Positions 9,901-48,973 are shown, counted from the first letter of the stretch. The stretch: 54,352 bases of DNA from Candidatus Levyibacteriota bacterium (GCA_963790825.1 CAWBPM010000003.1:1-54352); one strand, 5' to 3'. The notes: generated by a model from the sequence alone, not told the origin. Program-made: numbers and translations.

Positions 9901-9930
9901 ATCATACGAAATACTGATTATCTTTGTCAA
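9901..9930 (-). promoter_or_regulatory. Sigma70 promoter of the DUF4012 gene
   Basis: TTGACA (9930-9925), 18 bp, TATGAT (9906-9901), 10 nt, ATG 9890. Confidence 0.65.
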
Positions 9931-9947
9931 ACTTACTCGGTGTTTTA

Positions 9948-10619: not shown

Positions 10620-10659
10620 ACAATGATTATGCTAGATGCTCAGCAGAAGTTCCACAAAC

Positions 10660-13943: not shown

Positions 13944-13996
13944 AATTTTGAGTATACTGCTCAAAGTGTTTTTTATCAATATATATGAGTAAGATA

Positions 13997-15010: not shown

Positions 15011-15037
15011 TCAGTAATTATACATTACACTTTGTTT

Positions 15038-25298: not shown

Positions 25299-25307
25299 AA
25301 ATAAACT

Positions 25308-26486
25308 TTAACCAAATATCGCCAGTAGTTGCGCTATCTCATCTCCATTAAGCTCCGGATTATTGCCGAAATACATACCGTTTTCGTTGATTAAAGTTGA
25401 GTTGCACTCTCCCAAAACGTCAGTATACTCCGGCATGTGTTTGGTATAAAATGGTTGGCGAGTCATGTCGCCTCCGACAATAGGTCTAACTTCTACTTTT
25501 CCTTTGCATTTTTTAATCAAATCATCGCGAATTTTTTGTGATTTGCAGATAATCGGCACGGCGAAATTTGAAACAAGATCGATATGGTCATATTTAATCG
25601 GATAATAACGATCTGTTCGGGTATAAATCTTTTTTGCCAGTTTTTTAAAGTTTTGTTGTCTTTTTTTTATTATTTCGTTGATGTAGGGAAGTTGCAGATT
25701 GCCAATAAAACCGTTTATCTCGCTCGGTCGAAGATTATAGCCAACATCATAAAATGTATATTTTGAATAGAAATGAGATACGACATTGTGTTTCTTTCGC
25801 AAAAGCAGTTGCGTATCAGAGTCCAAATTCCTGTCCCAACCGTGAGCCCGAACGAGCTTAAGCATAATAGCTATTTCTTTATCATCAGTACAAACCGCAC
25901 CTCCTTCAATTGTCGACATATGATGACCAACAAAAAAAGAAAATGTACTTGCCAGACCAAAATTTCCCAGTTTGATTTTTTTATACACCGATCCTAAAGA
26001 TTCACAATTATCTTCAAGAAGAATGATCTTTCGCTTGGAACAGATTTTTTTAATTTCATCGATATCATCACAAAATCCAAGCAGATTTGTCAAAAATAAT
26101 AATTTAATTGGGAACTTTTTTAAAATCTTTAATAAATTTTTACTGGAAACATTTAAAGTATTTAACTCCACGTCTACAGGAATAGCATGCAGACCGAGTT
26201 GAATCAGTGGCATCGGATTCGTTGCCCAAGTTAAGGCCGAAAAGGCAGCTGAATCAGACTTATGAATTCTTCCTGTATTCAGCAAAGCTTGGACAATCGC
26301 TAAGTTTGCCGAGCTCCCACTGTTAAAAAACACACAATATTTTCTTCCCTGGTATTTAGCAAAATTTTTTTCAAACTTTGCACACTCTGGTCCGATACTC
26401 AGTTGCTTTGCCGAAATAATAAAATTACTCAATTTTTTCTTTGTCTCTTCTTCCTGGTAGAACATTGATTTAATTAACTTTATCAT
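25308..26486 (-). CDS. colD: PLP-dependent sugar 3-dehydratase, ColD-like (DegT family, His in place of Lys)
   Basis: NSGSSANL, EDNCESLG, FSFFVGHHMSTIEGG, RAHGWDR, GYNLRP, VEVRPIVGG; adjacent to Fcl/ColC-like gene. Confidence 0.78.
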   Translation of the reverse strand: MIKLIKSMFYQEEETKKKLSNFIISAKQLSIGPECAKFEKNFAKYQGRKYCVFFNSGSSANLAIVQALLNTGRIHKSDSAAFSALTWATNPMPLIQLGLHAIPVDVELNTLNVSSKNLLKILKKFPIKLLFLTNLLGFCDDIDEIKKICSKRKIILLEDNCESLGSVYKKIKLGNFGLASTFSFFVGHHMSTIEGGAVCTDDKEIAIMLKLVRAHGWDRNLDSDTQLLLRKKHNVVSHFYSKYTFYDVGYNLRPSEINGFIGNLQLPYINEIIKKRQQNFKKLAKKIYTRTDRYYPIKYDHIDLVSNFAVPIICKSQKIRDDLIKKCKGKVEVRPIVGGDMTRQPFYTKHMPEYTDVLGECNSTLINENGMYFGNNPELNGDEIAQLLAIFG

Positions 26487-26546: not shown

Positions 26547-27441
26547 TGTTAAGTACCCATTTCTTTAGATAAACGGTCCAAACCTTCTTTTTTAATATAG
26601 TAGTTTAATCTGAACTGTGCCGGACTCATACTTAATGATGTATGTCTTCTTTTGTTATTGTAATAATAAATCGTTTGATAAATTGCCTCGATTAATTCTC
26701 CGAGAGATTTGAATTGTCCCATGTGTTCTAAGTCCACTTTAAACTTACCATAAAATGACTTCTGAAATCCATTCTGCCAGGGACTGGTTTTATCAGCAAA
26801 GAAAATTATTATTCCTTTCCCTTTAACATATGTTTTGTAGTCTTGGCTGGTATATTCTGATCCCTGATCGGAATGCAGGTAAACAGGATCTATTCCGGTA
26901 TTTTTTTCAGCAGCCATAAAAGCTTCCATTACCAAGTTCTTGTTATGGAACCTACTGGTTGCTACTCCTATAACTTCTCTTGTATACATATCCATAATGG
27001 TTGCCAGATAGATAAATTTGCCTTCAAATTTAATGTAGGTAAAATCAGATACCCAGACTACGTTTAGAGCTATAGAGCAAAGCAATTTATACACATTTAC
27101 GCAGTCTTCCTACGGTGCTTTGCCCATGTCCTCTTTTTTAAATGGTTTCTTAACCCTTCTCTTATATGGCCTGATGTTAAACTTTTTCATTACCCTAAGT
27201 ATCCGCTTCTTGTTTGGTTTTAACTCCGGAGCAATACGCTTATGTCCATAAGCTTTATTCTCCGCTAATACTGCCTCTATTTGACGCCTTACTTCCTCAT
27301 CAATCAGAGGACGCTTCTTCTGATACTAGAGTGATTGCCGACTCACCCTGTCACAGTCCTTATGTCCATTGCAACACTAACCTAGCAAAACACTATCGCA
27401 TTGTCAAACTCTACGTATGTCGAAATTCTGAGATCTTACCA
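26547..27441 (-). mobile_element. IS3-family insertion sequence remnant
   Basis: Tentative imperfect TG-starting ends (TGTTAAGTACCCA.. at 26547; TGGTAAGATCTCA.. minus from 27441); no clear target duplication. Confidence 0.6.
26549..27349 (-). pseudogene. IS3-family transposase pseudogene (HTH-like plus rve/DDE)
   Basis: One frame RVSRQSL*YQKKRP..YGHKRIA..KAP*EDC..WVSDFTY..HSDQGSEY..NGFQKSF; TAG at 27328-27326 and 27112-27110; third DDE acid is Lys. Confidence 0.88.
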
Positions 27442-27443: not shown

Positions 27444-28571
27444 TCATGAGACTGCAGACTGTTTTCTATCGGCTCGTAAAGAGAACACCAGTTGAAAGGT
27501 ACCTATTATAAGGAAGAGATAAGCCCAGATTGCGGATTTATCGGCAAAAGCATCAAGATGCATGGTGAGCAATATAAAACAGAGAACTAGAAAAAATAAG
27601 GCGAACAAGTATGAAATCTGCGCATCATAATTATCATATGTAAATATTGTTATTCCCCATAGAGTAATTATAATGAGCAGTAAAAAGTTACTCGTACTGG
27701 AAACAAGAAATACTTCAATTAAAATTGTTATAAATAAGATAACTGTTAACAAATGGACTTTTTTTATTATCTTTTCCTCATCAACCAAGTGGATTACATA
27801 AAGTTTATTCATTAACCAATTAAGTAGTCGCGAAATAGAAGTAAGATAACTATCTAAGAAATGAAGAAAAATGAAATACGTAAATTTTGCATTGAAAGTT
27901 ATTGTTCTTCTTTCACTTAGGATATAGTAGTAAGTATAGAAAGGCAGGAAATAGATAAGCGAAGAAAATATTATATCAAAATTTTGCAATGCATAAATAA
28001 ATTTCATATACATAAATTGCAAGAATACTTTAGGAATTTTCAGCTGAGTTTTTGTGAATTGGTACTCGGTAACAATCGTTTGATTTCGTGCTATTGTCAG
28101 TGCGTTATTTTTTGTCGCACCCTTTGAATAAATCTCAAAAGAATATCTTTTTCCTTTAGAATCCGGAATCTTCATAAACCCAAACGGAAATAAATCCAGT
28201 TCATGAAACTGTCCGCCGTTATAGGTGTTCTCGCCAACTAAATGATTCGTATTACTTTCTTTTATTCTGAAATAAACTTTAAAATTGTCCGAAACATTCT
28301 CTCCATGAAGGTTCTTAATTTTTAATGCAATTGTGCCCAGATTATTTTCATAGGCAACAAAATTTCCTTTTATAACACTACCGTCTAAGAGACTTTCTCC
28401 CGGTAATATAAGTGATGCATTATTTTTATTTTCGTAAGGAAGAACAGTGATATGTGCATCTTGTGTAAAGATCTGAAACAGAGAGAAGAATGCGCCAAAA
28501 AGAAACAGGAGTAAGGGAAACATGAATAAATACATTGGTTTGTAGCTGATATATTTTTTTGTTAATTTCAT
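27444..28571 (-). CDS. Hypothetical membrane protein (N-terminal TM, soluble domain, C-terminal TM bundle)
   Basis: 375-aa ORF coupled by 4-nt overlap to the upstream gene; hydrophobicity pattern only. Confidence 0.75.
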   Translation of the reverse strand: MKLTKKYISYKPMYLFMFPLLLFLFGAFFSLFQIFTQDAHITVLPYENKNNASLILPGESLLDGSVIKGNFVAYENNLGTIALKIKNLHGENVSDNFKVYFRIKESNTNHLVGENTYNGGQFHELDLFPFGFMKIPDSKGKRYSFEIYSKGATKNNALTIARNQTIVTEYQFTKTQLKIPKVFLQFMYMKFIYALQNFDIIFSSLIYFLPFYTYYYILSERRTITFNAKFTYFIFLHFLDSYLTSISRLLNWLMNKLYVIHLVDEEKIIKKVHLLTVILFITILIEVFLVSSTSNFLLLIIITLWGITIFTYDNYDAQISYLFALFFLVLCFILLTMHLDAFADKSAIWAYLFLIIGTFQLVFSLRADRKQSAVS

Positions 28572-30838
28572 ATTTTTTTATTACTAAATATTCTCTTCCC
28601 TTCTTGTGTTATTACAATGAGAATCAATAAGCATAAAGCCAGTCCTGATATTATTTCTGTCAGGCTGAAGTATATCTGATTTCTATCAATAAGTATAACA
28701 TAGAGTTCTTTGTCTCCTTTAGCATTTTGCGGTATATCTTTCGGATCGATAACCCATGTATTACTCAAATAGTTTCCCTCAAAATGATTTCTCTGATCAA
28801 CAATAGGATTATTAACCAGAGAAAGTAGTCCGATATCAATAAGCGGTTGAGGAACTAAACAGCGTGTATTTTCCGTCAAACTGAATTCCTCCGGTTTGTT
28901 TTCACATTGCTTACTATAGAATTCTGCTTTATTTATCCAGATAACCTGCCATGCGGGATTAAAAGATTGTGTCAGATGTATTGCAAACGGGCTTTGAGTA
29001 GCAACATGACTAAGCTGGATATAATACGTCGTAGGATCCAGTTGAGATGTTTTATAAAAAATATGGACATTTTTTTGTATAGTATCAGTTGAAATATTCT
29101 TTTCGGAAGAAGATAAAACGACCGGCTTGCCTTTTATGGGCAACAAATTATCAAAAAACGAATTGATATCATCTTTATAGATTACAGTACCGGGTGAGTA
29201 TACAAGGAAATCGTAGTCATTTTTATTTTTAAAAGAATACTTGGTAAAATACTCGTTTTCCGATTTCTTTAATAAACTATTTCTACTAAAAATCTGATTA
29301 ACTTTATTAGTTTTAACTATCGTATCAGTATCATATTCAGGTCCCGCATCAACCCCTTTTACAATATCGTTAGCAGTGATAATATATTTTACGTTTTCAG
29401 TTATTCTTAAATTATTCACGTTGGAATTCTCAATGATATTTTTTGTTATAAAATAGCTTTTTCCGGATATTGCCCGGGGATTATCAAATGAAATCGGTTT
29501 ATAATGAATCCCATTATTGAAGCATTGCGTTGGCGTATTAAATCTATCCATGTATTTGGCCCTCCAACAACTAGAGGGGAAATAATCAGCCGCTTCTGCA
29601 AAACCGAAATAAGGTTGTATAAAATTTTGCCGGTAAGGCTTGGGGATATCGCTGATAATAAACTTCTGCAGTTTAAAATCAGACAAATTTAATAAAGGAA
29701 GCGTTGCCAGTATAATAAAACAGGCGGCGAAAATAGACAATAACCGCTCTTTTCTGTTGCTCATATGGCCTAATAAAAGCAGCAATGGGATGTTACTGAT
29801 ATATAACCCATAAAACGGTGCGTTCGTCAGAAACGGCAAGAACTTGATGAAAAATCCATACGTCTCTCTACCAGCAACAAACCCCAACTTAAAGAAAGTT
29901 AAGCCAAGCAGAAATAATACAAAATTCATCACAACAAAAGCTGATTGCTTCTTCTGAATACTTTTTATAAATCCGATAATAAAGGCTATAAAAAAGATAA
30001 TGCCCAACATCAGATATAAACGATTATCATAAAGGATAATATTTGAGGATTGAAAGAAGTTAAACATATCAAAGAAATTCCCCTTGGCGACAAATGTATT
30101 AAAAACTACTGAAAATCCGAAGATACCGGTTGTTTTTTGCAATAATTGCGCTTGAAGTGTATAAATTAAAGGAAGAAAAAGAAGAATATATAGACTAAGG
30201 AAGATTATAATTTTTCTGGTTTGTATCCTGAAACCCTGTCTGTTGCCCAATAAATAGACGAGGAGTGGAACAACAAGAAAGAAGTTAGCCTGAAGAAAAC
30301 GAATATTGGCTATCCAAAGAAATGAAGCAAAAACATTTAATAACAAATACATCCAAACAATCTTTTCCTTTGAATAAAACTCATAAAAAGAATAAATAAA
30401 CAAAGGTACGGTAGCATAGACAATTCCTTCTCCCCTAAAACTATATAATAGCGGATTAAACGTATATAAAAGAGTAGTGATGAAACGAATTTTCTTATTA
30501 GTAAAAAATAATCCTGAAAATAAATAGAAGCTTATAAAGCTTAAGATAAAAGAAAGTATGGAAGTCGCAATTTGCGAGCCAGTGCTACCAAAAAGATGAA
30601 ATAAAACGAAGAAAAGAATATTTATAAGTATTGTATTAAATGCAATAATGCTTTGATCTGAACCGAGATAATACCCCGCATTTGAAAAAATGTGGAACTG
30701 ATTGGTCAGAAACGCAAGCACTTCCTGAGAATTTTTAAACCAGTATGACTGGTCTTGGTATAACCACAGGCCATTCTTAAATAAGAATGCATTTGCAGAA
30801 ACCAATAAGATTACAAAAATAAGTATTTTGTACTTCAT
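28568..30838 (-). CDS. Large multi-TM protein with C-terminal extracellular domain, probable GT-C (YfhO/AftD-like)
   Basis: About 13 TM, LYTFNP, C-terminal QSFNPAW and NHFEGNYLSNTWVI shared in pattern with 38101..40398. Confidence 0.6.
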   Translation of the reverse strand: MKYKILIFVILLVSANAFLFKNGLWLYQDQSYWFKNSQEVLAFLTNQFHIFSNAGYYLGSDQSIIAFNTILINILFFVLFHLFGSTGSQIATSILSFILSFISFYLFSGLFFTNKKIRFITTLLYTFNPLLYSFRGEGIVYATVPLFIYSFYEFYSKEKIVWMYLLLNVFASFLWIANIRFLQANFFLVVPLLVYLLGNRQGFRIQTRKIIIFLSLYILLFLPLIYTLQAQLLQKTTGIFGFSVVFNTFVAKGNFFDMFNFFQSSNIILYDNRLYLMLGIIFFIAFIIGFIKSIQKKQSAFVVMNFVLFLLGLTFFKLGFVAGRETYGFFIKFLPFLTNAPFYGLYISNIPLLLLLGHMSNRKERLLSIFAACFIILATLPLLNLSDFKLQKFIISDIPKPYRQNFIQPYFGFAEAADYFPSSCWRAKYMDRFNTPTQCFNNGIHYKPISFDNPRAISGKSYFITKNIIENSNVNNLRITENVKYIITANDIVKGVDAGPEYDTDTIVKTNKVNQIFSRNSLLKKSENEYFTKYSFKNKNDYDFLVYSPGTVIYKDDINSFFDNLLPIKGKPVVLSSSEKNISTDTIQKNVHIFYKTSQLDPTTYYIQLSHVATQSPFAIHLTQSFNPAWQVIWINKAEFYSKQCENKPEEFSLTENTRCLVPQPLIDIGLLSLVNNPIVDQRNHFEGNYLSNTWVIDPKDIPQNAKGDKELYVILIDRNQIYFSLTEIISGLALCLLILIVITQEGKRIFSNKKI

Positions 30839-30881
30839 GTATTACGTTTTTCCATCTGTACCAAACGTGATATTTCTGGTA

Positions 30882-30887
30882 TATAAT
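30882..30887 (+). promoter_or_regulatory. Leaderless-type -10 for the plus-strand island
   Basis: TATAAT, 7 nt, ATG 30895 within a 56-bp divergent gap. Confidence 0.65.
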
Positions 30888-30894
30888 AGCATAT

Positions 30895-31671
30895 ATGAAA
30901 GTTATCATTCTCTGCGGCGGAATTGGGACTCGGCTCAAAGAAGAAACAGAATTCAAGCCAAAACCCATGGTTTACGTCGGAAACAAACCGATAATTTGGC
31001 ATATTATGAAGATATATGCACATTACGGATATAATGAATTTATTCTCGCGCTCGGATACAAAGCTGATTACATTAAAGACTTTTTCCTGAATCAGAAAGC
31101 ATTTACTTCCGACTTCACATTGGACACGGAAAATTATGAAACTGAATTTTACCTTCATAAAAGAGAAGGGCCTGAAAATTTCAAAATAACATTCGTAGAC
31201 ACCGGACTTGAAACATTGCCCGGTGAGAGAATCCTCCGTTGCAGGAAATATATCCCGCAGGATGATGATTCTTTTATGGTTACTTATGGAGATGGTGTTG
31301 CCAATATTAACCTAAAAAAACTTGCAGCATTTCACAAAAAACAAAAAACAATCGGCACCGTAACAGGAGTGCACCCTCATTCCAAGTTCGGATTATTACG
31401 TATTGATCATGTCGCTTTAGTAAAGGGTTTTAAAGAAAAACCTATTCTTGCCGACTGGGTAAACGGAGGATTCATGATTTTTGAGCGTGAATTTTTCGAC
31501 TTTCTTAAACCGGGAGAAATGGAACACGAGGGACTAAAGCGTTTGGTAAAAATCAAACAGCTGTCTCTATATAAACATGATGATTTCTGGTATGCAATAG
31601 ACACGTACAAAGAGCTTGAAGAGTTAAATAAGATGTGGGAAAATAACCCTCCCTGGAAGATATGGAAGTAA
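30895..31671 (+). CDS. rfbF: Glucose-1-phosphate cytidylyltransferase
   Basis: LCGGIGTRLKEETEFKPKPMV, WHIMKIY, VDTG, TYGDG, FKEKP, NGGF, IDTYKE. Confidence 0.93.
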   Translation: MKVIILCGGIGTRLKEETEFKPKPMVYVGNKPIIWHIMKIYAHYGYNEFILALGYKADYIKDFFLNQKAFTSDFTLDTENYETEFYLHKREGPENFKITFVDTGLETLPGERILRCRKYIPQDDDSFMVTYGDGVANINLKKLAAFHKKQKTIGTVTGVHPHSKFGLLRIDHVALVKGFKEKPILADWVNGGFMIFEREFFDFLKPGEMEHEGLKRLVKIKQLSLYKHDDFWYAIDTYKELEELNKMWENNPPWKIWK

Positions 31672-32603
31672 CATTTACTAATTCTACTATAGTAGTTACC
31701 GGCGGAGCAGGTTTTATCGGCAGCCACCTTGTTCAAGAACTGGTAAAACAACATGCAAGAGTTATTGTCATCGATAAAGTGAAAAAACCTCTCAGGTTAC
31801 AACGAGTCATATACGAAACCGTCGATATAAGGGATCGGGCCAAGCTTTTCTCTGTTATAAAAAAATATTCTCCACAATATATCTTCCATCTTGCAGCAGT
31901 AACGATAGTCCCCTATGCCTTTATAAATTCCCTTGAAACTTTCGAAACCAACGTTATGGGAACAGTTCACGTTTTGGAAGCAGCCAAGAAGATAAAAAAC
32001 ATTAAAGCTATTATCATTGCTTCATCCGATAAAGCATATGGAAAATTGAAAAAGAAATATTACAATGAGGAAGCTCCTCTCAAGGGTGATCATCCATACG
32101 ATGTCTCAAAATCGTCTACTGATCTCATCGCGCAATCGTATTTCCATACATATCATCTTCCGGTTGTCATAAGCAGATTCGGTAATGTGTATGGCGAAGG
32201 AGACATGAATCTTTCCCGCCTTATACCGGGAATCATGAACTCTTTAATAAAAAATGAAACACTAGAAATTAGAAGCGATGGAAGTTATGTTCGCGATTAC
32301 CTTTATGTAAAAGATGTGGTAGATGGTTATTTATCGCTTGCAAAAAAAATACACGTGACACAAGGACACGCATTTAATTTTGGCTCGAAAGAAACATTAT
32401 CTGTAAAAGAAGTTATTGCAGTAGTTGAGAAAACACTAGGCAAAAAAATTCGTCTTAAAATCTTGAATACGGCAATGAACGAAATTCCCTATCAATCTTT
32501 AAATTACAATAAAGCGAAAAAGGTACTGAAATGGAAGCCAAAGCATACATTTACCAATGTTCTCCCCGCTATTCTTAATTACTATAAAAACAATTTACAA
32601 TAA
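31662..32603 (+). CDS. rfbG: CDP-glucose 4,6-dehydratase-like SDR
   Basis: TGGAGFIG, FETNVMGT, SSDKAYG, PYDVSK, RFGNVYG.GD...RLIP; follows rfbF. Confidence 0.75.
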   Translation: MEVTFTNSTIVVTGGAGFIGSHLVQELVKQHARVIVIDKVKKPLRLQRVIYETVDIRDRAKLFSVIKKYSPQYIFHLAAVTIVPYAFINSLETFETNVMGTVHVLEAAKKIKNIKAIIIASSDKAYGKLKKKYYNEEAPLKGDHPYDVSKSSTDLIAQSYFHTYHLPVVISRFGNVYGEGDMNLSRLIPGIMNSLIKNETLEIRSDGSYVRDYLYVKDVVDGYLSLAKKIHVTQGHAFNFGSKETLSVKEVIAVVEKTLGKKIRLKILNTAMNEIPYQSLNYNKAKKVLKWKPKHTFTNVLPAILNYYKNNLQ

Positions 32604-32606
32604 TCT

Positions 32607-33545
32607 ATGATGAATATCCTTATAACAGGAGGTACGGGGTTTGTTGGTTCAAATCTGACAAGAAGACTTGTAGATGAGGGCCATAAGCCAACAATATTAG
32701 TGAGAAAAAACTCTCATTTCTGGCGCCTCCATAATATTTTGCCTTACATAACACCGGTTGAGTCTGATCTGCAAAACAACAAAGAACTCAAGAGAATAGT
32801 GCAGAAGATTAAGCCGGAATATATTTTCCATTTAGCAACATATGGATCAAATCAAAGAAAGGAAGATGATGCTGTTAACACTATCCAAACAAACATCATA
32901 AGCACGCTTAATTTACTGGAAGCATGCGCGACAATCGGATTTAAAGCATTCATAAACACAAGCTCATCTTCCGAATATGGATTAAAGGATTCACCGATGA
33001 AAGAATCCGACCTCCCGGTACCTGTAAACGTATACGGCATAACAAAAGCCGCGGCAACAAATTTAGCCAATATGTATGCCCGGAAGTTTCACTTGCCAAT
33101 AGTTACACTGCGGCTTTTTTCGCCATATGGATATTTTGAAGCAAAACAACGACTCGTACCTACAATTATTTATCATATGATACAAAAGAAACCTCTCCAA
33201 TTATCCAAACCAACATATGTCCGGGATTTTATTTTTATTGATGACGTTATCGACTCGTACATGTACTTTCTTACCGGGAAACCATATGAGGGTGAGATAT
33301 TTAATATCGCTTCAGGGAAACAGCATACCATTAATGAGGTTGTGCAGACAGCTGAAGAGATACTGGGACCTAGTACCATCAGTTGGAATAAATATGCATC
33401 AAATCAGGATGAGCCCGTTATGTGGGAGGGCGATATTAAAAAAGCAAAAAAAATGATGGGCTGGCAGCCAAAAACCACACTACACAACGGCTTGCAAAAA
33501 GCAGCAAATTGGCTAAAGGCCAATCAATACTTGTATGAAGAATAA
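32607..33545 (+). CDS. NAD-dependent nucleotide-sugar epimerase/reductase (extended SDR)
   Basis: TGGTGFVG, SSSEYG, YGITK, LRLFSPYG, RDFIFIDD. Confidence 0.88.
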   Translation: MMNILITGGTGFVGSNLTRRLVDEGHKPTILVRKNSHFWRLHNILPYITPVESDLQNNKELKRIVQKIKPEYIFHLATYGSNQRKEDDAVNTIQTNIISTLNLLEACATIGFKAFINTSSSSEYGLKDSPMKESDLPVPVNVYGITKAAATNLANMYARKFHLPIVTLRLFSPYGYFEAKQRLVPTIIYHMIQKKPLQLSKPTYVRDFIFIDDVIDSYMYFLTGKPYEGEIFNIASGKQHTINEVVQTAEEILGPSTISWNKYASNQDEPVMWEGDIKKAKKMMGWQPKTTLHNGLQKAANWLKANQYLYEE

Positions 33546-34362
33546 TTTCGATAATAAAAAGATAAACATATTAAAAAAAATAGCTAAAGAGGTACGCAAG
33601 GACATTATTCGCATGAGTTATAATGCCCAAAGTGCGCATACCGGAGGTGCCCTCTCTTGCGTTGAGATATTAGTCGCACTTTACTTTAAGATCATGAAAG
33701 TATTTCCAAAAGATCCTTATAATGAAAACCGCGACAGGCTTTTTTTTAGCAAAGCACATGATGCAAAGGCACTTTATGCGGTTCTTGCAGAAAGAGGATA
33801 TTTCAAAAAAAACATTCTTGAGGGATACGAGGTCAATAACGGCTTACTGCCCGGTCACTCAACACGGCACTGCGTACCCGGAGTAGAGATCTCAGCCGGA
33901 TCTTTGGGCCATGGGTTATCGATGGCCGTAGGAAGTGCTTTTATCAGTCATTCTAAACATAAAATTTATGCAATACTAAGTGACGGGGAATGTGATGAGG
34001 GGTCGACGTGGGAAGCGGCACTCTTTGCGGGAATGCATAAATTGACTAATCTTGTAGCAATTATTGACTACAACAAGCTCCAGGGGTTTGGCTTCACAAA
34101 AGATATTTTAAACTTAGAACCATTCAGGGAAAAATGGGAAAGCTTCGGATGGGCTGTACAAGAAATAAACGGGAATGACTTTAAAGAACTTTTGGCAACT
34201 CTTGATATGATTCCCTTTGACAAAAAGAAACCGTCATTGATCATTGCACATACGATAAAAGGTCTCGGTGGAGTCAAAAAACACATAAATCAAATATCGT
34301 CGCAGTACAAGCCCCCAACTAAAGATGAAATGATAAATATTATTTCTCAATTGGAAAAGTAA
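33535..34362 (+). CDS. Split transketolase, N-terminal ThDP-binding subunit (copy 1)
   Basis: HTGGALS, DRLFFSKAH, GSLGHGL, SDGECDEGSTWEA, DYNKLQ, AHTIKG. Confidence 0.92.
   Translation: MKNNFDNKKINILKKIAKEVRKDIIRMSYNAQSAHTGGALSCVEILVALYFKIMKVFPKDPYNENRDRLFFSKAHDAKALYAVLAERGYFKKNILEGYEVNNGLLPGHSTRHCVPGVEISAGSLGHGLSMAVGSAFISHSKHKIYAILSDGECDEGSTWEAALFAGMHKLTNLVAIIDYNKLQGFGFTKDILNLEPFREKWESFGWAVQEINGNDFKELLATLDMIPFDKKKPSLIIAHTIKGLGGVKKHINQISSQYKPPTKDEMINIISQLEK
33979..34016 (+). repeat. 38-nt direct repeat, copy 1
   Basis: AGTGACGGGGAATGTGATGAGGGGTCGACGTGGGAAGC, identical to 35765-35802. Confidence 0.92.
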
Positions 34363-34367
34363 CATAT

Positions 34368-35285
34368 ATGAGACAAGCATTTGTAGATACATTATTTGCC
34401 CTGGCGAAGAAAAACCCTAATATTATTCTCTTAACGGCAGATCTGGGATTCTCAGTTTTTGAACCATTTATAGAAGAACTTCCCAAGCAATTCATTAATG
34501 CAGGAGTATCTGAACAGAATATGACCGGTATGGCTGCCGGAATGGCAATTGAAGGAAAAATTCCAGTTATCTACTCTATTGTTCCTTTTGTCACGATGAG
34601 AAATCTTGAACAAATCAGGAATGATATTTGTTACCAGAACTTAAATGTTAAAATAATTGGTGTGGGTGCCGGTTTCTCATATGGACCGTATGGACATACT
34701 CATCACGGACTGGAAGACATAGGAATTTTACGTACATTACCAAACCTTACTATTCTTTCACCTGGAGATCCGATCGAAACTAAAATTTTAACAAAAGCCG
34801 CATTACAAACAAATAAGCCAACCTATATCCGGTTAGGTCGAGCAGGTGAACCTATTGTCCACGAAAATATACCTGCTTTTCACATAGGCAAGGGTATTGT
34901 TATTAAAGAAGGGACAGATATCGGTATTCTCGTAACCGGTACTATGGTGCATACTGCAAAACTCGTAACAGAAGAGCTGGAAAAAAGACATATAAACTCG
35001 CAGCTTGCCAGTATGCCGACGATAAAACCACTCGATACCAAACTTATTCAGAGAATAGCACAAGAAACAAAAGCCCTGTTTACCATTGAGGAGCACTCAA
35101 TTATCGGAGGCCTTGGTTCTGCTGTATCTGAGTATTTGGCGGAGAATCATTACGGAAAAGTTTTTTTGAGAATCGGCGTCCCCGATAAATTCTCAACAGT
35201 CATAGGAAAACGAGAATACATGCGTGAAGCAAATAACCTTAGTGTTGAGCAGATTGTCGCTACGATAATGAAAATATTGCCCTGA
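34368..35285 (+). CDS. Split transketolase, C-terminal subunit (copy 1)
   Basis: TADLG, GVSEQNM, EQIRND, G.THHGLED, PTIKPLD, EEHSIIGGLGS. Confidence 0.92.
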   Translation: MRQAFVDTLFALAKKNPNIILLTADLGFSVFEPFIEELPKQFINAGVSEQNMTGMAAGMAIEGKIPVIYSIVPFVTMRNLEQIRNDICYQNLNVKIIGVGAGFSYGPYGHTHHGLEDIGILRTLPNLTILSPGDPIETKILTKAALQTNKPTYIRLGRAGEPIVHENIPAFHIGKGIVIKEGTDIGILVTGTMVHTAKLVTEELEKRHINSQLASMPTIKPLDTKLIQRIAQETKALFTIEEHSIIGGLGSAVSEYLAENHYGKVFLRIGVPDKFSTVIGKREYMREANNLSVEQIVATIMKILP

Positions 35286-35311
35286 CAAATAAGTAGCAGA
35301 GTAATATACAT

Positions 35312-36145
35312 ATGCAAAATAAAATATCTAAACAAGAAATTAAAGCATTAAAAAAAGCAGCTAAAGAAATGAGAAAATATATTTTCTCGATGATTGTAAG
35401 TGCTCATGCTTCCCATATCGGATCTGCTTACTCGGTTATTGACATACTTGTATATTTATATAAACACTTTTTGCATATTAATCCTGCTCATCTAGACAAT
35501 CCTGAGCGAGATAGATTCATTTTAAGTAAAGGATGGGGTATCTCGGCACTTTATTCGGTCTTGGCATCTCGCGGCTTTTTTTCAAAAAAACTTTTGCCGG
35601 GCTACTGCACAGACGGCAGCAAACTGATCGGTTGTGCAACGAGAAATGGGATACCGGGCATAGAAGCAACAACGGGGTCTATGGGGCATGGACTTCCCCT
35701 GGGGGTTGGGATGGCACTCGCGGGAAAGCGGCAGAAGCGGAAATACAGAACTGTCGTAATTATCAGTGACGGGGAATGTGATGAGGGGTCGACGTGGGAA
35801 GCATCACTTATAGCCGGGCATCACAAGCTTAGCAACCTTATTGTCTTTATTGACTACAATGGGTGGCAAAGTTTTGGTCGGACAAAAGATATTCTTCTAC
35901 TGGATCCTCTTGCAGATAAATGGAGAGCTTTCAACTGGCACGTTCAAGAGATAGACGGACATGATTTCCGGCAAATATACACAGCAACCCTTCCCTCATC
36001 GTTAGCAAAAAATAAACCGAATGTAATTATTGCCCATACTGTCAAGGGCAAAGGCCTTTCGCTCCTTGAAGACAGAAATGAATGGCACTATCAAACTCCA
36101 CGCGAAAAAGAGATACAACAGGCGAGAGAGGAAGGATTACTATGA
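35312..36145 (+). CDS. Split transketolase, N-terminal subunit (copy 2)
   Basis: HIGSAYS, DRFILSKGW, GSMGHGL, SDGECDEGSTWEA, AHTVKGKG, WHY. Confidence 0.92.
   Translation: MQNKISKQEIKALKKAAKEMRKYIFSMIVSAHASHIGSAYSVIDILVYLYKHFLHINPAHLDNPERDRFILSKGWGISALYSVLASRGFFSKKLLPGYCTDGSKLIGCATRNGIPGIEATTGSMGHGLPLGVGMALAGKRQKRKYRTVVIISDGECDEGSTWEASLIAGHHKLSNLIVFIDYNGWQSFGRTKDILLLDPLADKWRAFNWHVQEIDGHDFRQIYTATLPSSLAKNKPNVIIAHTVKGKGLSLLEDRNEWHYQTPREKEIQQAREEGLL
35765..35802 (+). repeat. 38-nt direct repeat, copy 2
   Basis: Identical to 33979-34016. Confidence 0.92.
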
Positions 36146-37059
36146 AACAAGCATTTATCGATACGCTGACAAAGGTTGTTTCAAGACATGATGACGTTAT
36201 TGTTATTACAGCAGATATGGGATTCTCTGTTTTTGAAAATCTCCGCGACACTTTCCCACACCAGTTTTTAAACACTGGGGTTACCGAACAAGCGTCTGTT
36301 AGTACAGCAGCAGGATTAGCATTGTCCGGGTATAAAGTATTTTTCTATGCACAAGCAGCATTTGCCACGATGCGCTGCTTCGAACAGATACGCCTTGATA
36401 TCGCGTATAACTTCCTCAACGTAAAGATTATTGGAGTAAACGCCGGGTTTAGTCTCAATCAACTTGGAGTAAGTCATTTTGCAACTGAGGATATCGGTTT
36501 AATGAGAATGCTTCCCGATATGACAATTTTTTCTCCCGGAAATCCACATGAAATGAATTGGTCTATAGAAAAGGCATATGAAATTAACGGTCCTACTTAC
36601 TTGAGATATTCGAAGCTAGATGATAACACGGAGAAAGACTATGAAATTTCTATAGGAAAACCTATTTTAATTTCTGGCGGATCAGATGGGGCTATTTTTG
36701 TCAGTGGCGGAATTATGGCAAATGTAAAGCAAGCAGTAAGACTACTTAAAAAACAAAATATTTCTCTTTCTCTTTATTCAATTCCAACTATAAAGCCACT
36801 AGATAAAAAGAGTTTAATCTCAATTGCGGATAAAAACGAAAACATCTTTACCATAGAGGAGCATAACATAATAGGAGGGTTAGGAAGTGCAATTACAGAA
36901 TTACTTGCCGACTCTTCTTTAAGAATCAAAGTCCACCGTATTGGGGTCAATGATAAATTTACCCCTATAGCAGGTTCTGTTGATTACTTAATTGATTATA
37001 ATGGACTTTCTGCGGACAAAATAGCCTCAAAAATTAAAACTGTTCTGGCAAAAAAGTAA
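36142..37059 (+). CDS. Split transketolase, C-terminal subunit (copy 2; start revised to ATG 36142)
   Basis: MKQAFIDTL parallels MRQAFVDTL of copy 1; ATGA overlap; GVTEQ, EQIRLD, GVSHFATED, EEHNIIGGLGS. Confidence 0.92.
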   Translation: MKQAFIDTLTKVVSRHDDVIVITADMGFSVFENLRDTFPHQFLNTGVTEQASVSTAAGLALSGYKVFFYAQAAFATMRCFEQIRLDIAYNFLNVKIIGVNAGFSLNQLGVSHFATEDIGLMRMLPDMTIFSPGNPHEMNWSIEKAYEINGPTYLRYSKLDDNTEKDYEISIGKPILISGGSDGAIFVSGGIMANVKQAVRLLKKQNISLSLYSIPTIKPLDKKSLISIADKNENIFTIEEHNIIGGLGSAITELLADSSLRIKVHRIGVNDKFTPIAGSVDYLIDYNGLSADKIASKIKTVLAKK

Positions 37060-37080
37060 TAGTACAACCTGTTAAATAAA

Positions 37081-38121
37081 ATGAAACCTTTTTTTTCAGT
37101 TATTATTCCTACGTATAATAGACCCGGAAATATCAAACAAGCTATAGAAAGTATCTTAAATCAAACGTTTAGGAATTACGAGATTGTTATTACAGATAAT
37201 TCTACTAATCTATTATCAAAAACTATATGTGAGAGTTACAAAAATGAAAATATCAGATATTTTAAAAACAAAGAAAATCTGGGTTTTACTAAGAATCTAT
37301 ATAAGTGTATAAATCTGGCGAAAGGAAAATATATATTTATACTCGGTGATGATGATCTACTTCTGGAACGTGAGCTACTGGCAAATATCCATAAACTAAC
37401 TATCAAAAATAAGTACGGTTATATCAGAATAAAATTTATTTATCACAAAGCGTTCAAGAAATTATTTTCGGTCTATCTTAATGACGCTCTTGATAAAAAT
37501 TTAAGGATGATAAAACCAAACAGTAATGAAATAGATATCTATAACTTTATCGATAGATCAATTTACTCTTTTATTTCAGGGTTAGTATTTCTGAATACAC
37601 GTAATTTTACCATCAAGGAAATAGGGTCGAACAAAAAGGAAGATATTGACCTCTCTAACTTTTGGATCAAATATTTGTTTAATATAGTTAAATCACATGG
37701 GGGGTATATTGATATCAATAATACGATTCTGTCACAATGGCCCGAGTATCCCAATCCTGTCTTCTATAATGTCATCGATAACAAGATTCCCGAAGAGAGA
37801 ATATGGGAATTATATAAAGAGTATGTAGATCAAGCAACTTTAAAGACAATCATACATGATTACACAACGATCATTGTCAGAAATTTTCCCAGTATTAAAT
37901 ACTATTCAAATACTGGAAATCTAGTCTTGTTTGCACGAAGATTGGTACAGCTAAATCCAACTCTACTATACAATTTATCGTTTTACTTCTTCTTTCTTTC
38001 TTCATTAATAATTCCTAAAAAAAATTGGTCATTTATCCGAAGCTTGTATCAAGGCAATAAACAGATTACTGACTTGAAGACTAGGAAGAGTTTATCTTTA
38101 TTATTGAGTTCGTTTAGATAA
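37081..38121 (+). CDS. Glycosyltransferase family 2
   Basis: SVIIPTYNR, TDNST, NLGF..N, GDDD; overlaps the convergent gene by 21 nt. Confidence 0.9.
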   Translation: MKPFFSVIIPTYNRPGNIKQAIESILNQTFRNYEIVITDNSTNLLSKTICESYKNENIRYFKNKENLGFTKNLYKCINLAKGKYIFILGDDDLLLERELLANIHKLTIKNKYGYIRIKFIYHKAFKKLFSVYLNDALDKNLRMIKPNSNEIDIYNFIDRSIYSFISGLVFLNTRNFTIKEIGSNKKEDIDLSNFWIKYLFNIVKSHGGYIDINNTILSQWPEYPNPVFYNVIDNKIPEERIWELYKEYVDQATLKTIIHDYTTIIVRNFPSIKYYSNTGNLVLFARRLVQLNPTLLYNLSFYFFFLSSLIIPKKNWSFIRSLYQGNKQITDLKTRKSLSLLLSSFR

Positions 38122-40398
38122 ATTTCTTTTTATCTTTGTAGCCAAATACACCGCACCCACAGCGAATGAGATAATGAAAATAATAAAACCATAGTCTACG
38201 AAAGATTGTTTTTGATAATATAACACAAACTGCATATTTACACTTCCGTCCTTATTGACGGTAAAAAAAGAGGGGTAATTCTGCAAAATCTGGTTGGAGT
38301 TAATCAGCCATTCATTCGCGTATTCATATCCGGCAAGATGATCACTCTCAGATACCGAACTTCTGAAAGTATAGATTAATTCATCTGTTTCAAAGAAACT
38401 TTTCTCTCTAAGAAACGAGTTTTTATTGCTATTTTTATTATCAATAAAATTATTTGAAAACTTAACGGGATATAATTTCCAAGCAGTACTAAAATTATTT
38501 AGGAAATACAATCTCGTGTTTGTAGATAGATTCGTTAGTTCAATATTTATCCGTGTAGGATTTTGAATAGTATACCTCAATAACGGTGTGCGTTTCTGCC
38601 CATAAGTATCAACCGTTAGGAGATCACTTCGACAGCTATCTTTTACGATATATAAAGTGAATCCGCGATAAAGATTATTTTGGTAAACTTTTTTGGAAAC
38701 AATGTCCGGATTGTTATTAAGTAAAGAAAGAAGACTTGAGATACTTTCTTCCATCCTCATTTGGGAAGACAGATCCTCCCGCACCATGATGTGTGAAATA
38801 CCCAATTGTTTCAACTGCGAACAAACATCTTTCTTTTTGCGAATCATTTTTACCAGGTCATTTACTTTCCTTTTTATTGGTGTATTGGGTGTCGAATCAG
38901 ATTCATCAGGAGCTACAAGTTCAAAATCCCAAATATAATAAAGAAAATCTGATGTGTATAAATTATTAATTGACATGTTGAACATCGGTTGTATACCATA
39001 TGTGCCAGGAAGCAAAAGAATTTTATCCGCATTTGCATGGGTTATATCATTACGTGCTTCATAGTAATACTGAGGAATGTTAAACGGTATTAGGGTAGCC
39101 GATTTAAAAAATGAAAATATAAAATACCCGGTAATAAGTAGCATGGGTAAAAGAATAATAAGACCAAATTTGGTTTTACTCATTTTTTTACTTACAATAA
39201 CAGCCCCTGCAAAAGAAAGTGCTAAGTAAAAAATGATAAAAATACCATAATATTTACTGACCGGTCTTCGGAAAGACTGAAAGCCAATAACATTATTATA
39301 TAGCCACATATAAATATTTGAGAATGGCTCGCGCGGGCCTTTTGTTAGAAAAAAACCAACCAGTGTCATACACGTAAGCATGACTATATATCTGTTCTTT
39401 ATTGCTTTAATTACAGCTAACATAAAAAAAATTGCAATTATAATAAAAGAGACAAAAGCGATTGAATTGACATAATAATTGCTGTTTAAAAGGAATAACT
39501 GCCCATCGGGTCTTCCTAAGAATATATTTGTAACACTTGCCATTTTTACCGCAAGGTTAATAGCATTATTTATATAGTAATCCTGAGAAGTTGCCCCGGT
39601 AAGATCATGGAGAGTAGTTGCAAAACCCACGACCCACCAGACGTTTGATAAAAACAGTAAAGACAATACAACCGTCATTTTTCTGACAATCACCTTTATT
39701 GATATTTTCTGAATTATCCACGCTAAAAAGACATATATGAATAAGGTTAGTAAAATCGTATAGACGACTCCGACATTACCAAATGCAGTTGCGCTGAGTA
39801 AGAAAATTAAATAGATAATAAAATATTGCCATACACCCGAAGCTGTCCTTAAAAATAGCAAATCCAGTTGCTTCAATAATAAAGGAAAGAGAACGTAGGG
39901 AACTGCTTGAATAAAATGGCCCGGAGCAATAAGTGCGGCAAATGCAGGGGAAAATGCATAGAGCATCGAAAATAACATTGCTAAAAGTTTAGCTTTTGTT
40001 GACTCTGCCTTCAACTTATATGCAGATATATAATCGAGATAAATATACATAGATACTTCAGAGAAGAAAATAACTATTGCTATGTAAATCAAGCTAATTA
40101 TTAATGAGGTAAGATGTAAAAAATTACCCGCATAGAAAAGGAGATACTCCGGAAATAAATGGGCTATAAAGTAAGCCACATCAATTCCACCATATTGATT
40201 CGGGAAATAAATGAAAAAGTGAGTAAAGATATTACCATTAATACTTATGGGGGAGATATAATCGGCGCTACCTATAAATTGATAGTTAAATATATTATAT
40301 GAATTAAGTACAAATAATAATGAGGTTATTGCAAAAAGGATTAGTATCCAAAAACGTCTAATGCGTTTGGGATATTTAATATGTTTTATTGAATCCAT
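38101..40398 (-). CDS. Large multi-TM protein, probable GT-C (AftD/YfhO-like)
   Basis: GSAD first loop, LYAFSP, NVWW, KGPREPF...FQSFRRPVSKY, C-terminal NNFSTAW and HLAGYEYANEW. Confidence 0.65.
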   Translation of the reverse strand: MDSIKHIKYPKRIRRFWILILFAITSLLFVLNSYNIFNYQFIGSADYISPISINGNIFTHFFIYFPNQYGGIDVAYFIAHLFPEYLLFYAGNFLHLTSLIISLIYIAIVIFFSEVSMYIYLDYISAYKLKAESTKAKLLAMLFSMLYAFSPAFAALIAPGHFIQAVPYVLFPLLLKQLDLLFLRTASGVWQYFIIYLIFLLSATAFGNVGVVYTILLTLFIYVFLAWIIQKISIKVIVRKMTVVLSLLFLSNVWWVVGFATTLHDLTGATSQDYYINNAINLAVKMASVTNIFLGRPDGQLFLLNSNYYVNSIAFVSFIIIAIFFMLAVIKAIKNRYIVMLTCMTLVGFFLTKGPREPFSNIYMWLYNNVIGFQSFRRPVSKYYGIFIIFYLALSFAGAVIVSKKMSKTKFGLIILLPMLLITGYFIFSFFKSATLIPFNIPQYYYEARNDITHANADKILLLPGTYGIQPMFNMSINNLYTSDFLYYIWDFELVAPDESDSTPNTPIKRKVNDLVKMIRKKKDVCSQLKQLGISHIMVREDLSSQMRMEESISSLLSLLNNNPDIVSKKVYQNNLYRGFTLYIVKDSCRSDLLTVDTYGQKRTPLLRYTIQNPTRINIELTNLSTNTRLYFLNNFSTAWKLYPVKFSNNFIDNKNSNKNSFLREKSFFETDELIYTFRSSVSESDHLAGYEYANEWLINSNQILQNYPSFFTVNKDGSVNMQFVLYYQKQSFVDYGFIIFIISFAVGAVYLATKIKRNLSKRTQ

Positions 40399-47657: not shown

Positions 47658-47688
47658 ATATGGGTTGCAAAGAGAAATACCAGCGGAC

Positions 47689-48912
47689 TCATAAATACTT
47701 CTCAAGAAAAGCTGAGATTACCTTTTCAAGCTTTTCTAAATGTTTCTTTTCTATTCCATGGTGGCATCCGATGATGAATCCTCTTTTCATGATTGCGTCT
47801 GCCTGAGGAAAATCGTTAAGTCCTTTATGGAAAATGCCTTTGAACCCCGGCTGACGCAGAATATTACCGGTAAATATAACACGTGTTTGAATATTATTTT
47901 TTTCCAAATATGTCGTAAGCTCTAATCGTGAAAACGGAGCATCTTCAGTAATAGTAAGTGGAAATCCCAGCCATTGTGTGGTAACTTTACCATCCTGCTG
48001 CGGATTTATGAAGAATTTTTTATATTTTTTGAAAAACTTTTGTAGATAAGCAAAGTTATATTCTCTCGTTTTTTTGAATCGAGGCAATTTCTCAAATTGG
48101 GCATTTCCGAAGGCAGCACCCATCTCGTTGGGAAGAAAATTATATCCAACCTCATTAAAGATAAATTTCGCGTCATAAGGAATATTTTCTACTTTGACAC
48201 TAAACCGTTTTGCAATATCTTCCGTCTCTCCTATCAGAGCAGAACTTCTTCCCCATCCTCTCAGCATCTTTGCTCTATCAGCCCATTCTTTCCTTTGGAC
48301 CATAACCATACCGCCATTGCCGCCTGCCGTAATAATATGCGAGCCAAAAAAACTTGTAGTAGAGATGTCCGAATATGTTCCGGTTGGCTTTCCGGCATAT
48401 GTCGCTCCCAACGTATCACATGAATCTTCGATAATATACAGTTTATGCTTTTTTGCGAGAACTGAAAGTCTTTTCATATCCGGAACATTTCCAAGAAGAA
48501 ACGGGACAAGAATTGCTTTTGTTTTTTTGGTAATCAACTTCTCGATTTGATCAACATTAATAATGTACTTCCCCTCCTCAACGTCGGCAAACACAGGAAC
48601 CAGCCCTTTTTGTAATAAAGGCGCAACTGTTGTTGAAAAAGTGAGAATAGGAGTAATTACTTCCGATCCTTGCGGGAGATTTAATAATTCTACTGCCAGA
48701 AGATTTGCAGAAGATCCGGAATTTACCATAATTCCGAATTTTTTTCCGAAGGCTTTAGCAACCCTTACTTCAAACTCAGCGGTTTCACTTCCTAAATTAG
48801 TTCTATGTTCCTCCATCACTCTAACAACCCTGTCTACTTCCGACTTGTCATAAACGGATAGAGCATATGAAACACGTAAGGATGTATCTGTTTTTTTCTT
48901 TCCGGCTGTCAT
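47689..48912 (-). CDS. RfbH/E1-like PLP-dependent sugar dehydratase lacking Fe-S ligands (probable start 48912)
   Basis: NSGSSANLLA, EDSCDTLG, SFFGSHII, GWGR, KRF..YDAKF..GYN, IQTR.IF.GN; TATAAT 8 nt before ATG 48912. Confidence 0.8.
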   Translation of the reverse strand: MTAGKKKTDTSLRVSYALSVYDKSEVDRVVRVMEEHRTNLGSETAEFEVRVAKAFGKKFGIMVNSGSSANLLAVELLNLPQGSEVITPILTFSTTVAPLLQKGLVPVFADVEEGKYIINVDQIEKLITKKTKAILVPFLLGNVPDMKRLSVLAKKHKLYIIEDSCDTLGATYAGKPTGTYSDISTTSFFGSHIITAGGNGGMVMVQRKEWADRAKMLRGWGRSSALIGETEDIAKRFSVKVENIPYDAKFIFNEVGYNFLPNEMGAAFGNAQFEKLPRFKKTREYNFAYLQKFFKKYKKFFINPQQDGKVTTQWLGFPLTITEDAPFSRLELTTYLEKNNIQTRVIFTGNILRQPGFKGIFHKGLNDFPQADAIMKRGFIIGCHHGIEKKHLEKLEKVISAFLEKYL

Positions 48913-48973
48913 ATAACGCAATTATATATCGTTACTCAAATAATTCAAGAGACATTTTAAAACAACTCCTTGT

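Follow-up and report, generated by a model that had tools for sequence, protein, structure and literature searches.

An eight-gene block at positions 30895–38121 of a 54,352-nucleotide stretch of DNA from Candidatus Levyibacteriota bacterium (GCA_963790825.1 CAWBPM010000003.1:1-54352; the whole stretch is called the window here) places two different split transketolases, encoded in tandem, behind putative enzymes of cytidine diphosphate (CDP)-deoxysugar synthesis. The two transketolase pairs can be regarded with good confidence as non-housekeeping parts of a nucleotide-sugar pathway. Because they are linked to genes for CDP-hexose 4,6-dehydratase and 3-dehydrase, a thiamine diphosphate (ThDP)-dependent carbon–carbon step on a CDP-4-keto-(3,)6-deoxyhexose is the best reading of their role; that they branch the 4-keto sugar itself is held with modest confidence. 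Tentatively, the block would be a CDP-deoxysugar branching module in which the pairs use different donors and act in parallel, giving two alternative branched sugars, a reading drawn from sequence comparison and from analogy with known enzymes. An earlier interpretation of the same DNA (the original prediction) had proposed a CDP-sugar pathway with two successive C2 extensions; gene order, clade separation, residue changes and conserved linkage are observed, and of that proposal the carbon–carbon step is supported whereas the two extensions are not. Contig C3, whose first 54 kb make up the window, belongs to a genome of 1.46 Mb at 95.6% completeness, in keeping with the reduced genome that had been assumed.

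Gene order of the island

According to open reading frame (ORF) calls and domain scans, eight genes follow one another on the plus strand in the order RfbF-like, RfbG-like, short-chain dehydrogenase/reductase (SDR), TktN1, TktC1, TktN2, TktC2 and family 2 glycosyltransferase (GT2). The junctions are tight, with overlaps of 10, 11 and 4 bases and gaps of 3, 5, 26 and 21 bases, and the tightly coupled order of the original prediction is thereby borne out. Residues are numbered here as in Escherichia coli transketolase, and their positions were read from an alignment of 139 split pairs, the fused transketolase of the genome and E. coli TktA. PP and Pyr denote the pyrophosphate and pyrimidine domains of transketolase.

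30895..31671, plus strand: RfbF-like sugar-1-phosphate cytidylyltransferase, 258 aa (NTP_transferase; best NCBIfam match TIGR02623, 266.3 bits)
31662..32603, plus strand: RfbG-like CDP-hexose 4,6-dehydratase, 313 aa (extended SDR; best match TIGR02622, 200.8 bits)
32607..33545, plus strand: extended SDR of the cassette, 312 aa (Epimerase family)
33535..34362, plus strand: TktN1, ThDP (PP) domain half of pair 1 (PF00456, Transketolase_N, 120.5 bits; His261 replaced by Gln)
34368..35285, plus strand: TktC1, Pyr and C-terminal half of pair 1 (PF02779, Transket_pyr; PF02780, Transketolase_C)
35312..36145, plus strand: TktN2, PP domain half of pair 2 (PF00456, 141.3 bits; His66 replaced by Trp, His100 by Cys)
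36142..37059, plus strand: TktC2, Pyr and C-terminal half of pair 2 (Transket_pyr and Transketolase_C; start moved from 36082)
37081..38121, plus strand: GT2 glycosyltransferase, 346 aa (PF00535, 85.8 bits, residues 6-101)

The start of TktC2 is most likely at 36142 rather than 36082, since it then forms an ATGA overlap with TktN2 and its first residues, MKQAF, align to the start of TktC1, MRQAF.

Active sites of the two pairs

Pairs 1 and 2 share 48% identity in their N halves and 44% in their C halves, while the closest relatives found elsewhere reach 60–74% for pair 1 and 59–74% for pair 2; with much closer relatives elsewhere than in each other, the pairs are not the product of a recent duplication. 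Both retain the ThDP/Mg motif (G114, D155, N185), Glu411, His26 and His473 in full-length frames, with no frameshift or decay visible, and they differ at 8 of the 18 active-site positions compared. In TktC1, His461 is replaced by Gly, Asp469 by Tyr and Phe434 by Ile, and pair 1 retains the His100/His473 donor pocket. TktC2 carries Lys for Arg358, Gln for Phe434, Asn for His461, Leu for Asp469 and Lys for Arg520. The local alignments at the altered positions are unambiguous.

These changes are characteristic of two subtypes. Of the 21 pair-1-type rows of the alignment, 19 have His261Gln and 20 have Asp469Tyr. All ten pair-2-type rows have His66Trp and Phe434Gln, with Asn, Ala or Ser at His461 and Leu, Met or Tyr at Asp469; His100 is absent from all ten (Ile in eight, Ser in one, Cys in one) and present in 21/21 pair-1-type and 69/70 other rows. 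We take Arg358, Ser385, His461 and Arg520 to form the substrate phosphate pocket of the E. coli and yeast enzymes, and Asp469 is presumably the residue that reads the C2 hydroxyl of the aldose acceptor. Contacts of H461, R358 and R520 are mentioned in one published study (PMC10787763).

Separation from the housekeeping transketolase

A third transketolase of the genome, fused and 765 aa long, lies outside the window at about 188.3–190.6 kb of contig C3 (L261:5330-7627), on the minus strand and beside a release-factor gene. It keeps the canonical H26, H66, H100, H261, R358, S385, H461, D469 and R520. Its Transketolase_N match covers residues 10–219 and its Transket_pyr match begins at residue 460, with an apparent insertion of about 130–140 residues, within the N-terminal part, that has no Pfam match. 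The canonical set, including His461 and Asp469, is also kept in 24 of 27 split pairs from 27 genomes of the same family or order and in 13 of 19 from a sample of the phylum, and His461 in all 39 canonical rows. His461 and Asp469 are both missing from all 91 pairs retrieved with the window proteins from public genomes and metagenomes, as from both window pairs, and in all of these the place of Phe434 is taken by Ile or Gln, or by Leu in two rows; Asp469 is absent from 101 of 102 accessory rows.

The accessory proteins form a clade of their own, comprising 102 of 141 rows with a support of 100 in FastTree and 44 of 58 rows with a Shimodaira–Hasegawa-like approximate likelihood ratio test (SH-aLRT) value of 99 under the LG+C20 mixture model, and the pair 1 and pair 2 subclades are separate (21 and 10 rows, support 99–100). 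Most sampled relatives (37 of 40) lack both subtypes and yet have a canonical transketolase. In the phylogeny, both pairs thus fall apart from the housekeeping split transketolases, and the proposal that they lie outside the pentose-phosphate type holds on three counts, namely the separate clade, the loss of His461 and Asp469, and the canonical fused enzyme elsewhere in the genome. Matches of about 70% identity across the candidate phyla radiation (CPR) led us to consider pair 1 as a housekeeping split transketolase; this was rejected, as relatives mostly carry a pair of 35–42% identity and the residues disagree.

As a control, 12.5–20 kb around 20 canonical split transketolases of relatives were queried with 22 proteins of the glycan locus. 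None of the 20 loci matches any of the 22 queries, RfbF and RfbG included, and the neighbours there are genes for release factor, RecA, RNase Y and glycerate kinase. One relative (L251, G004:C23) has fused (about 636 aa) and split canonical transketolases side by side, at 7787-9583 and 9672-11417.

Gene neighbourhood of the accessory clade

A neighbourhood survey covered 160 related loci, 80 from species genomes and 80 from metagenomes. RfbF is found at an identity of at least 38% in 24/80 genome and 11/80 metagenome loci, and RfbF together with RfbG, at the same threshold, shares the locus with an accessory split transketolase in 21/80 and 9/80, respectively. Because this linkage recurs, and is seen in 0/20 control loci, the arrangement is more than chance. 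When the 1901 ORFs of these loci were clustered, a DegT-family gene was found in 76 of the 160 loci and an extended SDR in 75. Within loci of at least 8 kb that hold a complete pair, RfbF plus RfbG occur in 9/15 of the pair-1 type, 4/7 of the pair-2 type and 8/46 of other accessory types, and an RfbH-type gene in 11/15, 3/7 and 6/46.

The RfbH-type gene lies directly downstream of TktC in 7 of 18 pair-1-type and 3 of 9 pair-2-type loci, and in many cases the DegT gene in this position encodes a genuine RfbH/E1 3-dehydrase, such as L044:11724-13028 with 664.5 bits (cut-off 423). The 93 DegT rows divide into 53 with the usual Lys, 20 with His and a Cys-rich iron–sulfur (Fe-S) motif, and 20 with His and no such motif, three of the last being window rows. 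The cassette occurs in Patescibacteria and in records labelled Omnitrophica, Planctomycetota, Dehalococcoidia, Acidobacteria, Iainarchaeum and Bilamarchaeaceae. In many phyla, accessory pairs thus keep company with genes for CDP-hexose 4,6-dehydratase and 3-dehydrase, which supports the original prediction of a CDP-sugar role.

Enzymes encoded around the pairs

The RfbF-like protein matches the glucose-1-phosphate cytidylyltransferase family over its full length (1-255/255) with a score under the equivalog cut-off of 300.25; it is the sole strong match of its kind in the genome, and its orthologues in related cassettes are 55–71% identical. The RfbG-like protein likewise scores under the cut-off of the CDP-glucose 4,6-dehydratase family (278.45). 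Its PDB matches are dTDP- and CDP-glucose 4,6-dehydratases (6BI4, 1RKX, 1WVG); the last two are longer by about 40 residues. Aligned to 6BI4, it has S-D-K opposite the T-D-E of dTDP-glucose dehydratase, with YxxxK present. We take S-D-K to be the CDP-glucose dehydratase pattern, with an Asp-Lys acid/base pair as in the Yersinia and Salmonella structures.

The top PDB matches of the cassette SDR are UDP-GlcA 4-epimerase-like and UXS-like proteins. In 5 of 9 pair-2-type and 4 of 18 pair-1-type loci, an orthologue of it (40–52% identity) stands immediately upstream of TktN, a position that suggests a ketoreductase or epimerase acting on the branched sugar. By its position, the GT2 is a candidate transferase for the branched product: a GT2 of 31–32% identity directly follows TktC in L034, L039 and L041, and partial GT2 matches (32–36%) follow TktC2 in L138, L139 and L144.

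One further enzyme probably belongs with the island, although it is encoded 10 kb away:

47689..48921, minus strand: RfbH/E1-like 3-dehydrase of the pyridoxamine 5′-phosphate (PMP) type, without the Fe-S cysteine motif (NF011936, 361.6 bits, under the cut-off of 423)

It aligns to Yersinia E1 (3BCX) with 245.6 bits and has His at the position of E1 His220, which is Lys in the 3BB8 mutant. The Fe-S motif region contains no Cys, against three in 20 cassette RfbH proteins. It is counted as part of the system because its orthologues, 65–70% identical, lie directly beside TktC in L035, L036, L038, L042 and L140.

Proposed mechanism

We infer the acceptor, the donors, the order of steps and the roles of the SDR and GT2 as follows. 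The RfbF-like enzyme would activate a hexose-1-phosphate with CTP, and the RfbG-like enzyme would yield CDP-4-keto-6-deoxyhexose, from which the Fe-S-free dehydrase may take away the 3-hydroxyl. As in the split transketolase of known structure, each transketolase-like pair would by analogy form an α2β2 ThDP enzyme. The C4 ketone could then accept a ThDP-bound two-carbon unit from either pair, giving a 4-C-branched tertiary alcohol; the SDR would afterwards reduce or epimerise the product and the GT2 would hand it to the glycan. The two pairs are pictured as interchangeable module types with different active-site linings, which would work in parallel on one CDP-keto intermediate.

The donors are suggested by the donor pocket. 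Pair 1 probably transfers a hydroxylated ketol unit, leaving a glycolyl branch, since it keeps His100 and His473; pair 2, in which both His100 and His66 are gone, probably takes a non-hydroxylated donor, pyruvate for example, leaving an acetyl branch. H100 is the main difference between the donor pocket of E. coli transketolase and that of the pyruvate-using synthase of 1-deoxy-D-xylulose 5-phosphate (DXS), which has Phe or Tyr there, and His100 is kept in all ten split transketolases tested so far (PMC13663882). E. coli variants carrying H100L and D469T accept pyruvate, D469T giving a hydrophobic acceptor surface (PMC10787763).

Several points weigh against this mechanism. The RfbF-like and RfbG-like proteins both score under their NCBIfam equivalog cut-offs, which makes the nucleotide and the sugar uncertain, and the cassette SDR resembles tightly NAD-bound epimerases and decarboxylases rather than a plain reductase. 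Of the 68 loci that measure 8 kb or more and contain a complete pair, only 21 have RfbF plus RfbG, and the accessory clade in its entirety is not bound to CDP-glucose chemistry. Arg358 and Arg520 are retained or conservatively changed to Lys, and an anionic group, phosphate or diphosphate, is therefore probably still bound. Some cassettes (L040, L046, L085) also encode a YerE-like ThDP enzyme, so the transketolase there must do something other than replace YerE. Finally, the acceptor of the clade is read from gene context only, the donors from one or two positions and by analogy with engineered enzymes, and the parallel action of the pairs from parsimony. In L046, a TPP_enzyme_N/M/C protein of the YerE/acetohydroxyacid synthase (AHAS) type (6960-8747) stands beside the accessory split transketolase, two kinds of ThDP carboligase in one cassette.

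Origin of the tandem

The tandem of two subfamilies is the new element of this locus. None of the 160 related loci has two TktN genes, and no other genome with both subtypes was found: the best non-self identity to TktN2 is 52% among 400 genomes of the phylum and 53% among 400 of the class, and in the class sample only the source genome has two strong matches. Elsewhere, each type alone fills the slot after RfbF-RfbG-SDR, pair 2 in L140, L143, L144 and L145 and pair 1 in L043 and L049. A tree of RfbF plus RfbG places the window and L144 as sisters (SH-aLRT 98) and mixes the two transketolase types. Judged from these sequences, the simplest history would be that a cassette like that of L144 gained a pair-1 module at the junction of its SDR and pair 2. 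In a genome of the same family, G002 (L225, G002:C2), two accessory pairs of other subtypes converge across 2.4 kb, at 9700-11447 (plus) and 13860-15595 (minus); the SDR beside its second pair is 40% identical to the cassette SDR, and RfbF and RfbG are not seen in the 20 kb around the two pairs.

The block is inverted relative to its neighbours, as had been claimed, with minus-strand genes on both sides (28568-30838 and 38101-40398); the corresponding genes of L140, L143 and L049 all lie on one strand. No direct or inverted repeats of the kind left by inversion or insertion border the block. The only notable direct repeats, 34367-34390/36141-36164 and 34423-34463/36197-36237 (83–88% identical), are homologous codons of TktC1 and TktC2. 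GC content ranges from 0.36 to 0.43 across the enzyme genes, with no clear foreign segment. Two features lie on the upstream side:

30839..30894, plus strand: divergent intergenic region of 56 bases, with a TATAAT hexamer at 30882-30887 whose end lies 7 bases before the RfbF-like ATG
26549..27094, minus strand: insertion sequence (IS) integrase remnant, rve core only, 181 aa (PF00665, 68.5 bits), 3.8 kb from the inverted block

The IS remnant sits between a ColD-like/Fcl-like gene pair and two large ORFs without a family match (27444-28571 and 28568-30838). The promoter that the original prediction had assigned to the block is implied, because a divergent block needs its own transcription start, and the hexamer agrees with it; a two-hexamer promoter was not found in 30839-30894, nor a terminator 3′ of the GT2, by a consensus scan that is not informative, with 21 promoter-like sites against 30.2 expected. 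For 30800-38200, a look-up of sequencing runs listed none.

Alternative explanations

It is possible, though unlikely, that nucleotide sugars are not branched at all, and that the pairs make or break another molecule of the pathway (providing, for instance, an unusual ketose or a 2-oxo donor), split a ketol side chain in the manner proposed for DesAB, or act on a lipid- or phosphate-linked sugar. The retained Arg358/Arg520 or Lys would suit such substrates, YerE-like enzymes stand in some cassettes, and RfbF/RfbG are not seen in two thirds of accessory loci; moreover, in PMC3735941, desAB is a split transketolase relative recruited to non-sugar ketols, as a hypothesis there. Against this, the tightest and commonest neighbours create a 4-keto-(3,)6-deoxy nucleoside diphosphate sugar, the one known acceptor class for glycan ThDP branching, and the domain scans of the island show no kinase, isomerase or aldolase for a free-sugar route.

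The tandem may instead be a snapshot of a module swap, in which one pair is a redundant passenger, so that only one matters or both give the same product. The sister locus L144 is a cassette of the pair-2 type that has this gene order except that pair 1 is missing, the intermixed types on the RfbF plus RfbG tree indicate that swaps happen, and an IS remnant and an inversion are close by. A passenger is nonetheless quite unlikely in view of the intact catalytic motifs and the full-length, tightly coupled frames of both pairs, whose active sites have diverged and not decayed.

That both transketolases act in turn, adding two C2 units (or one C2 and then another on the side chain) to give a C8-C10 sugar like erwiniose or caryophyllose, is highly unlikely. 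Two different enzymes within one tight operon would fit such a route, as would the uniqueness of the tandem among the 160 loci, since it could encode a product beyond that of single-pair cassettes, and the pocket of pair 2 is strongly unlike that of pair 1, as expected with a different substrate. However, each type occurs alone in the same slot with the same RfbF, RfbG, SDR and RfbH partners, and the types are swapped between orthologous cassettes; the product of the first step would, moreover, carry a ketol as its side chain, which resembles a donor and would accept poorly. YerE-like enzymes make the known sugars with long branches from a single long 2-oxo acid donor rather than iteratively (PMC12247030). 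Successive C2 extension is the least parsimonious option and is given little credence, and it is equally doubtful that the pairs cooperate more broadly on one CDP-deoxysugar, sequentially or at two carbonyls, to make a doubly branched or chain-extended C8-C10 surface sugar of a CPR cell. Cooperation, if real, would set two precedents: an iterative ThDP route to a higher-carbon sugar, and a natural transketolase that uses a ketone on a nucleotide sugar.

Ordinary pentose-phosphate transketolases, present by chance in a glycan locus and supplying sugar phosphates, are hardly conceivable, for although the Pfam and NCBIfam label is transketolase and the cofactor motifs are intact, His461 and Asp469 are missing (His66 and His100 too in pair 2), the pairs form a separate clade beside a canonical fused enzyme, and 37 of 40 relatives do without these subtypes but have the canonical one.

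Comparison with known systems

To our knowledge, ThDP-dependent branching of nucleotide keto-sugars is experimentally known for YerE-type enzymes only. The closest functional parallel to the branching module favoured here is the CDP-yersiniose A pathway of Yersinia pseudotuberculosis (DdhA/RfbF, DdhB/RfbG, E1/E3, YerE, YerF), which would share with its gene set a CDP-glucose start, a 4,6-dehydratase, an E1-type 3-dehydrase, a ThDP enzyme placed to add a C2 unit to the C4 ketone and an adjacent SDR. YerE adds activated acetaldehyde to CDP-3,6-dideoxy-4-keto-glucose, according to PMC12247030. The likeness is in function only: YerE is a single-chain flavoenzyme of the decarboxylase/AHAS type, whereas the island encodes two-chain enzymes of the transketolase superfamily, with transketolase domains and not the TPP_enzyme_N/M/C architecture. 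In addition, the E1 relative of the window lacks the Fe-S motif, no E3 is seen, and there are two carboligases instead of one.

Split-gene transketolases have been proposed to move a hydroxyacetyl group onto a keto sugar in miharamycin and amipurimycin biosynthesis, a step untested in vitro, and all 13 further split candidates reported by Krug et al. 2024 come from Streptomycetes, both as given in the review PMC12247030. By the same review, a ketone-accepting transketolase has yet to be solved structurally. Compared by description only, these Streptomyces enzymes resemble the island pairs in the split and the proposed transfer; they belong to antibiotic clusters with a nucleoside-type sugar, unlike the island clade, which is found in surface-glycan loci of CPR, DPANN and many phyla. 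In a literature search, no account of a transketolase in a cassette for CDP-deoxysugars or surface glycans was found.

The split transketolase of Carboxydothermus hydrogenoformans (6YAK/6YAJ), the only one solved, is the best PDB match (205.8 and 216.5 bits) and shares the two-gene architecture and the ThDP/Mg and Glu411 motifs; it and the housekeeping pairs of CPR bacteria keep His461 and Asp469, which the window pairs do not, and the CPR housekeeping pairs belong to another clade with other neighbours. DesAB of Clostridium scindens, a putative steroid-17,20-desmolase for which the desmolase hypothesis was reportedly confirmed later, is also a split transketolase relative. As described in PMC3735941, it acts at a tertiary α-ketol/ketone pair, the reverse of hydroxyacetyl transfer; compared by description only, it differs in its steroid substrate, its catabolic role and its cortisol-induced operon.

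The replacements of the pair-2 type, His100 to Cys, Ile or Ser and Asp469 to Leu, Met or Tyr, are natural counterparts of the engineered E. coli H100L/D469T enzyme. In laboratory variants, changes at H100 and D469 give use of pyruvate and of non-phosphorylated, non-polar acceptors (PMC10787763, PMC13663882). Unlike the engineered variants, the pair-2 type is natural and has further changes (His66Trp, Phe434Gln, and His461 to Asn, Ala or Ser).

Remainder of the glycan locus

Most of the window is a single large surface-glycan locus on the minus strand. It also encodes many GT1, GT2 and GT4 genes, methyltransferases, GalE, two Fcl-like SDRs and a ManC-like gene, together with the following:

17703-20777, minus strand: very large membrane protein, 1024 aa, with a Wzy_C/O-antigen ligase domain
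25308..26486, minus strand: second His-type (ColD-like) enzyme of the DegT family, with His, not Lys, at the cofactor position
38101-40398, minus strand: very large membrane protein, 765 aa, with a weak GT-C (AftD N-terminal) match
49740-51011, minus strand: Wzx-like flippase, part of the glycan locus

A relative of the 765-aa GT-C protein, 30% identical, directly follows TktC in L040. Orthologues of the second DegT-family enzyme, 65–68% identical, are found in the cassette loci L140, L143 and L049, and its gene adjoins an Fcl/ColC-like SDR at 24363-25298 (443 bits, cut-off 500). The window thus has two sets of a His-type (PMP) DegT dehydrase and an Fcl/ColC-like SDR, at 24363-26486 and 45673-48921, both on the minus strand, with SDR scores of 443 and 470 bits under the same cut-off. 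The ManC-like gene lies at 10660-11745, and a Gmd gene is found outside the window at C3:167209-168156. Taken together, these genes point to a second 3,6-dideoxy pathway, of a GDP-colitose-like kind, within this locus. An assignment of one pair to each nucleotide-sugar pathway, CDP and GDP-colitose-like, was considered but is not favoured, as single-pair loci of either type carry both dehydrase types and there is no one-to-one mapping. An ORF at 53368-54351 (plus strand, running off the end of the window) joins GDT1 cation/proton antiporter repeats to a glycoside hydrolase family 8 domain.

Significance

What is new here is a well-separated clade of split transketolases with a rebuilt acceptor pocket, carried in the deoxysugar cassettes of bacteria of the CPR, archaea of the DPANN group and many other phyla. 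The operon puts two natural subtypes of this clade beside the same upstream enzymes, and pair 2 is naturally altered at His100 and Asp469, the positions that engineers mutate for pyruvate use and new acceptors. If the proposed role is true, these pairs would represent new sugar-branching chemistry and provide natural ketone-accepting transketolases for biocatalysis, and they would give a concrete insight into the surface glycans of uncultured small-genome bacteria.

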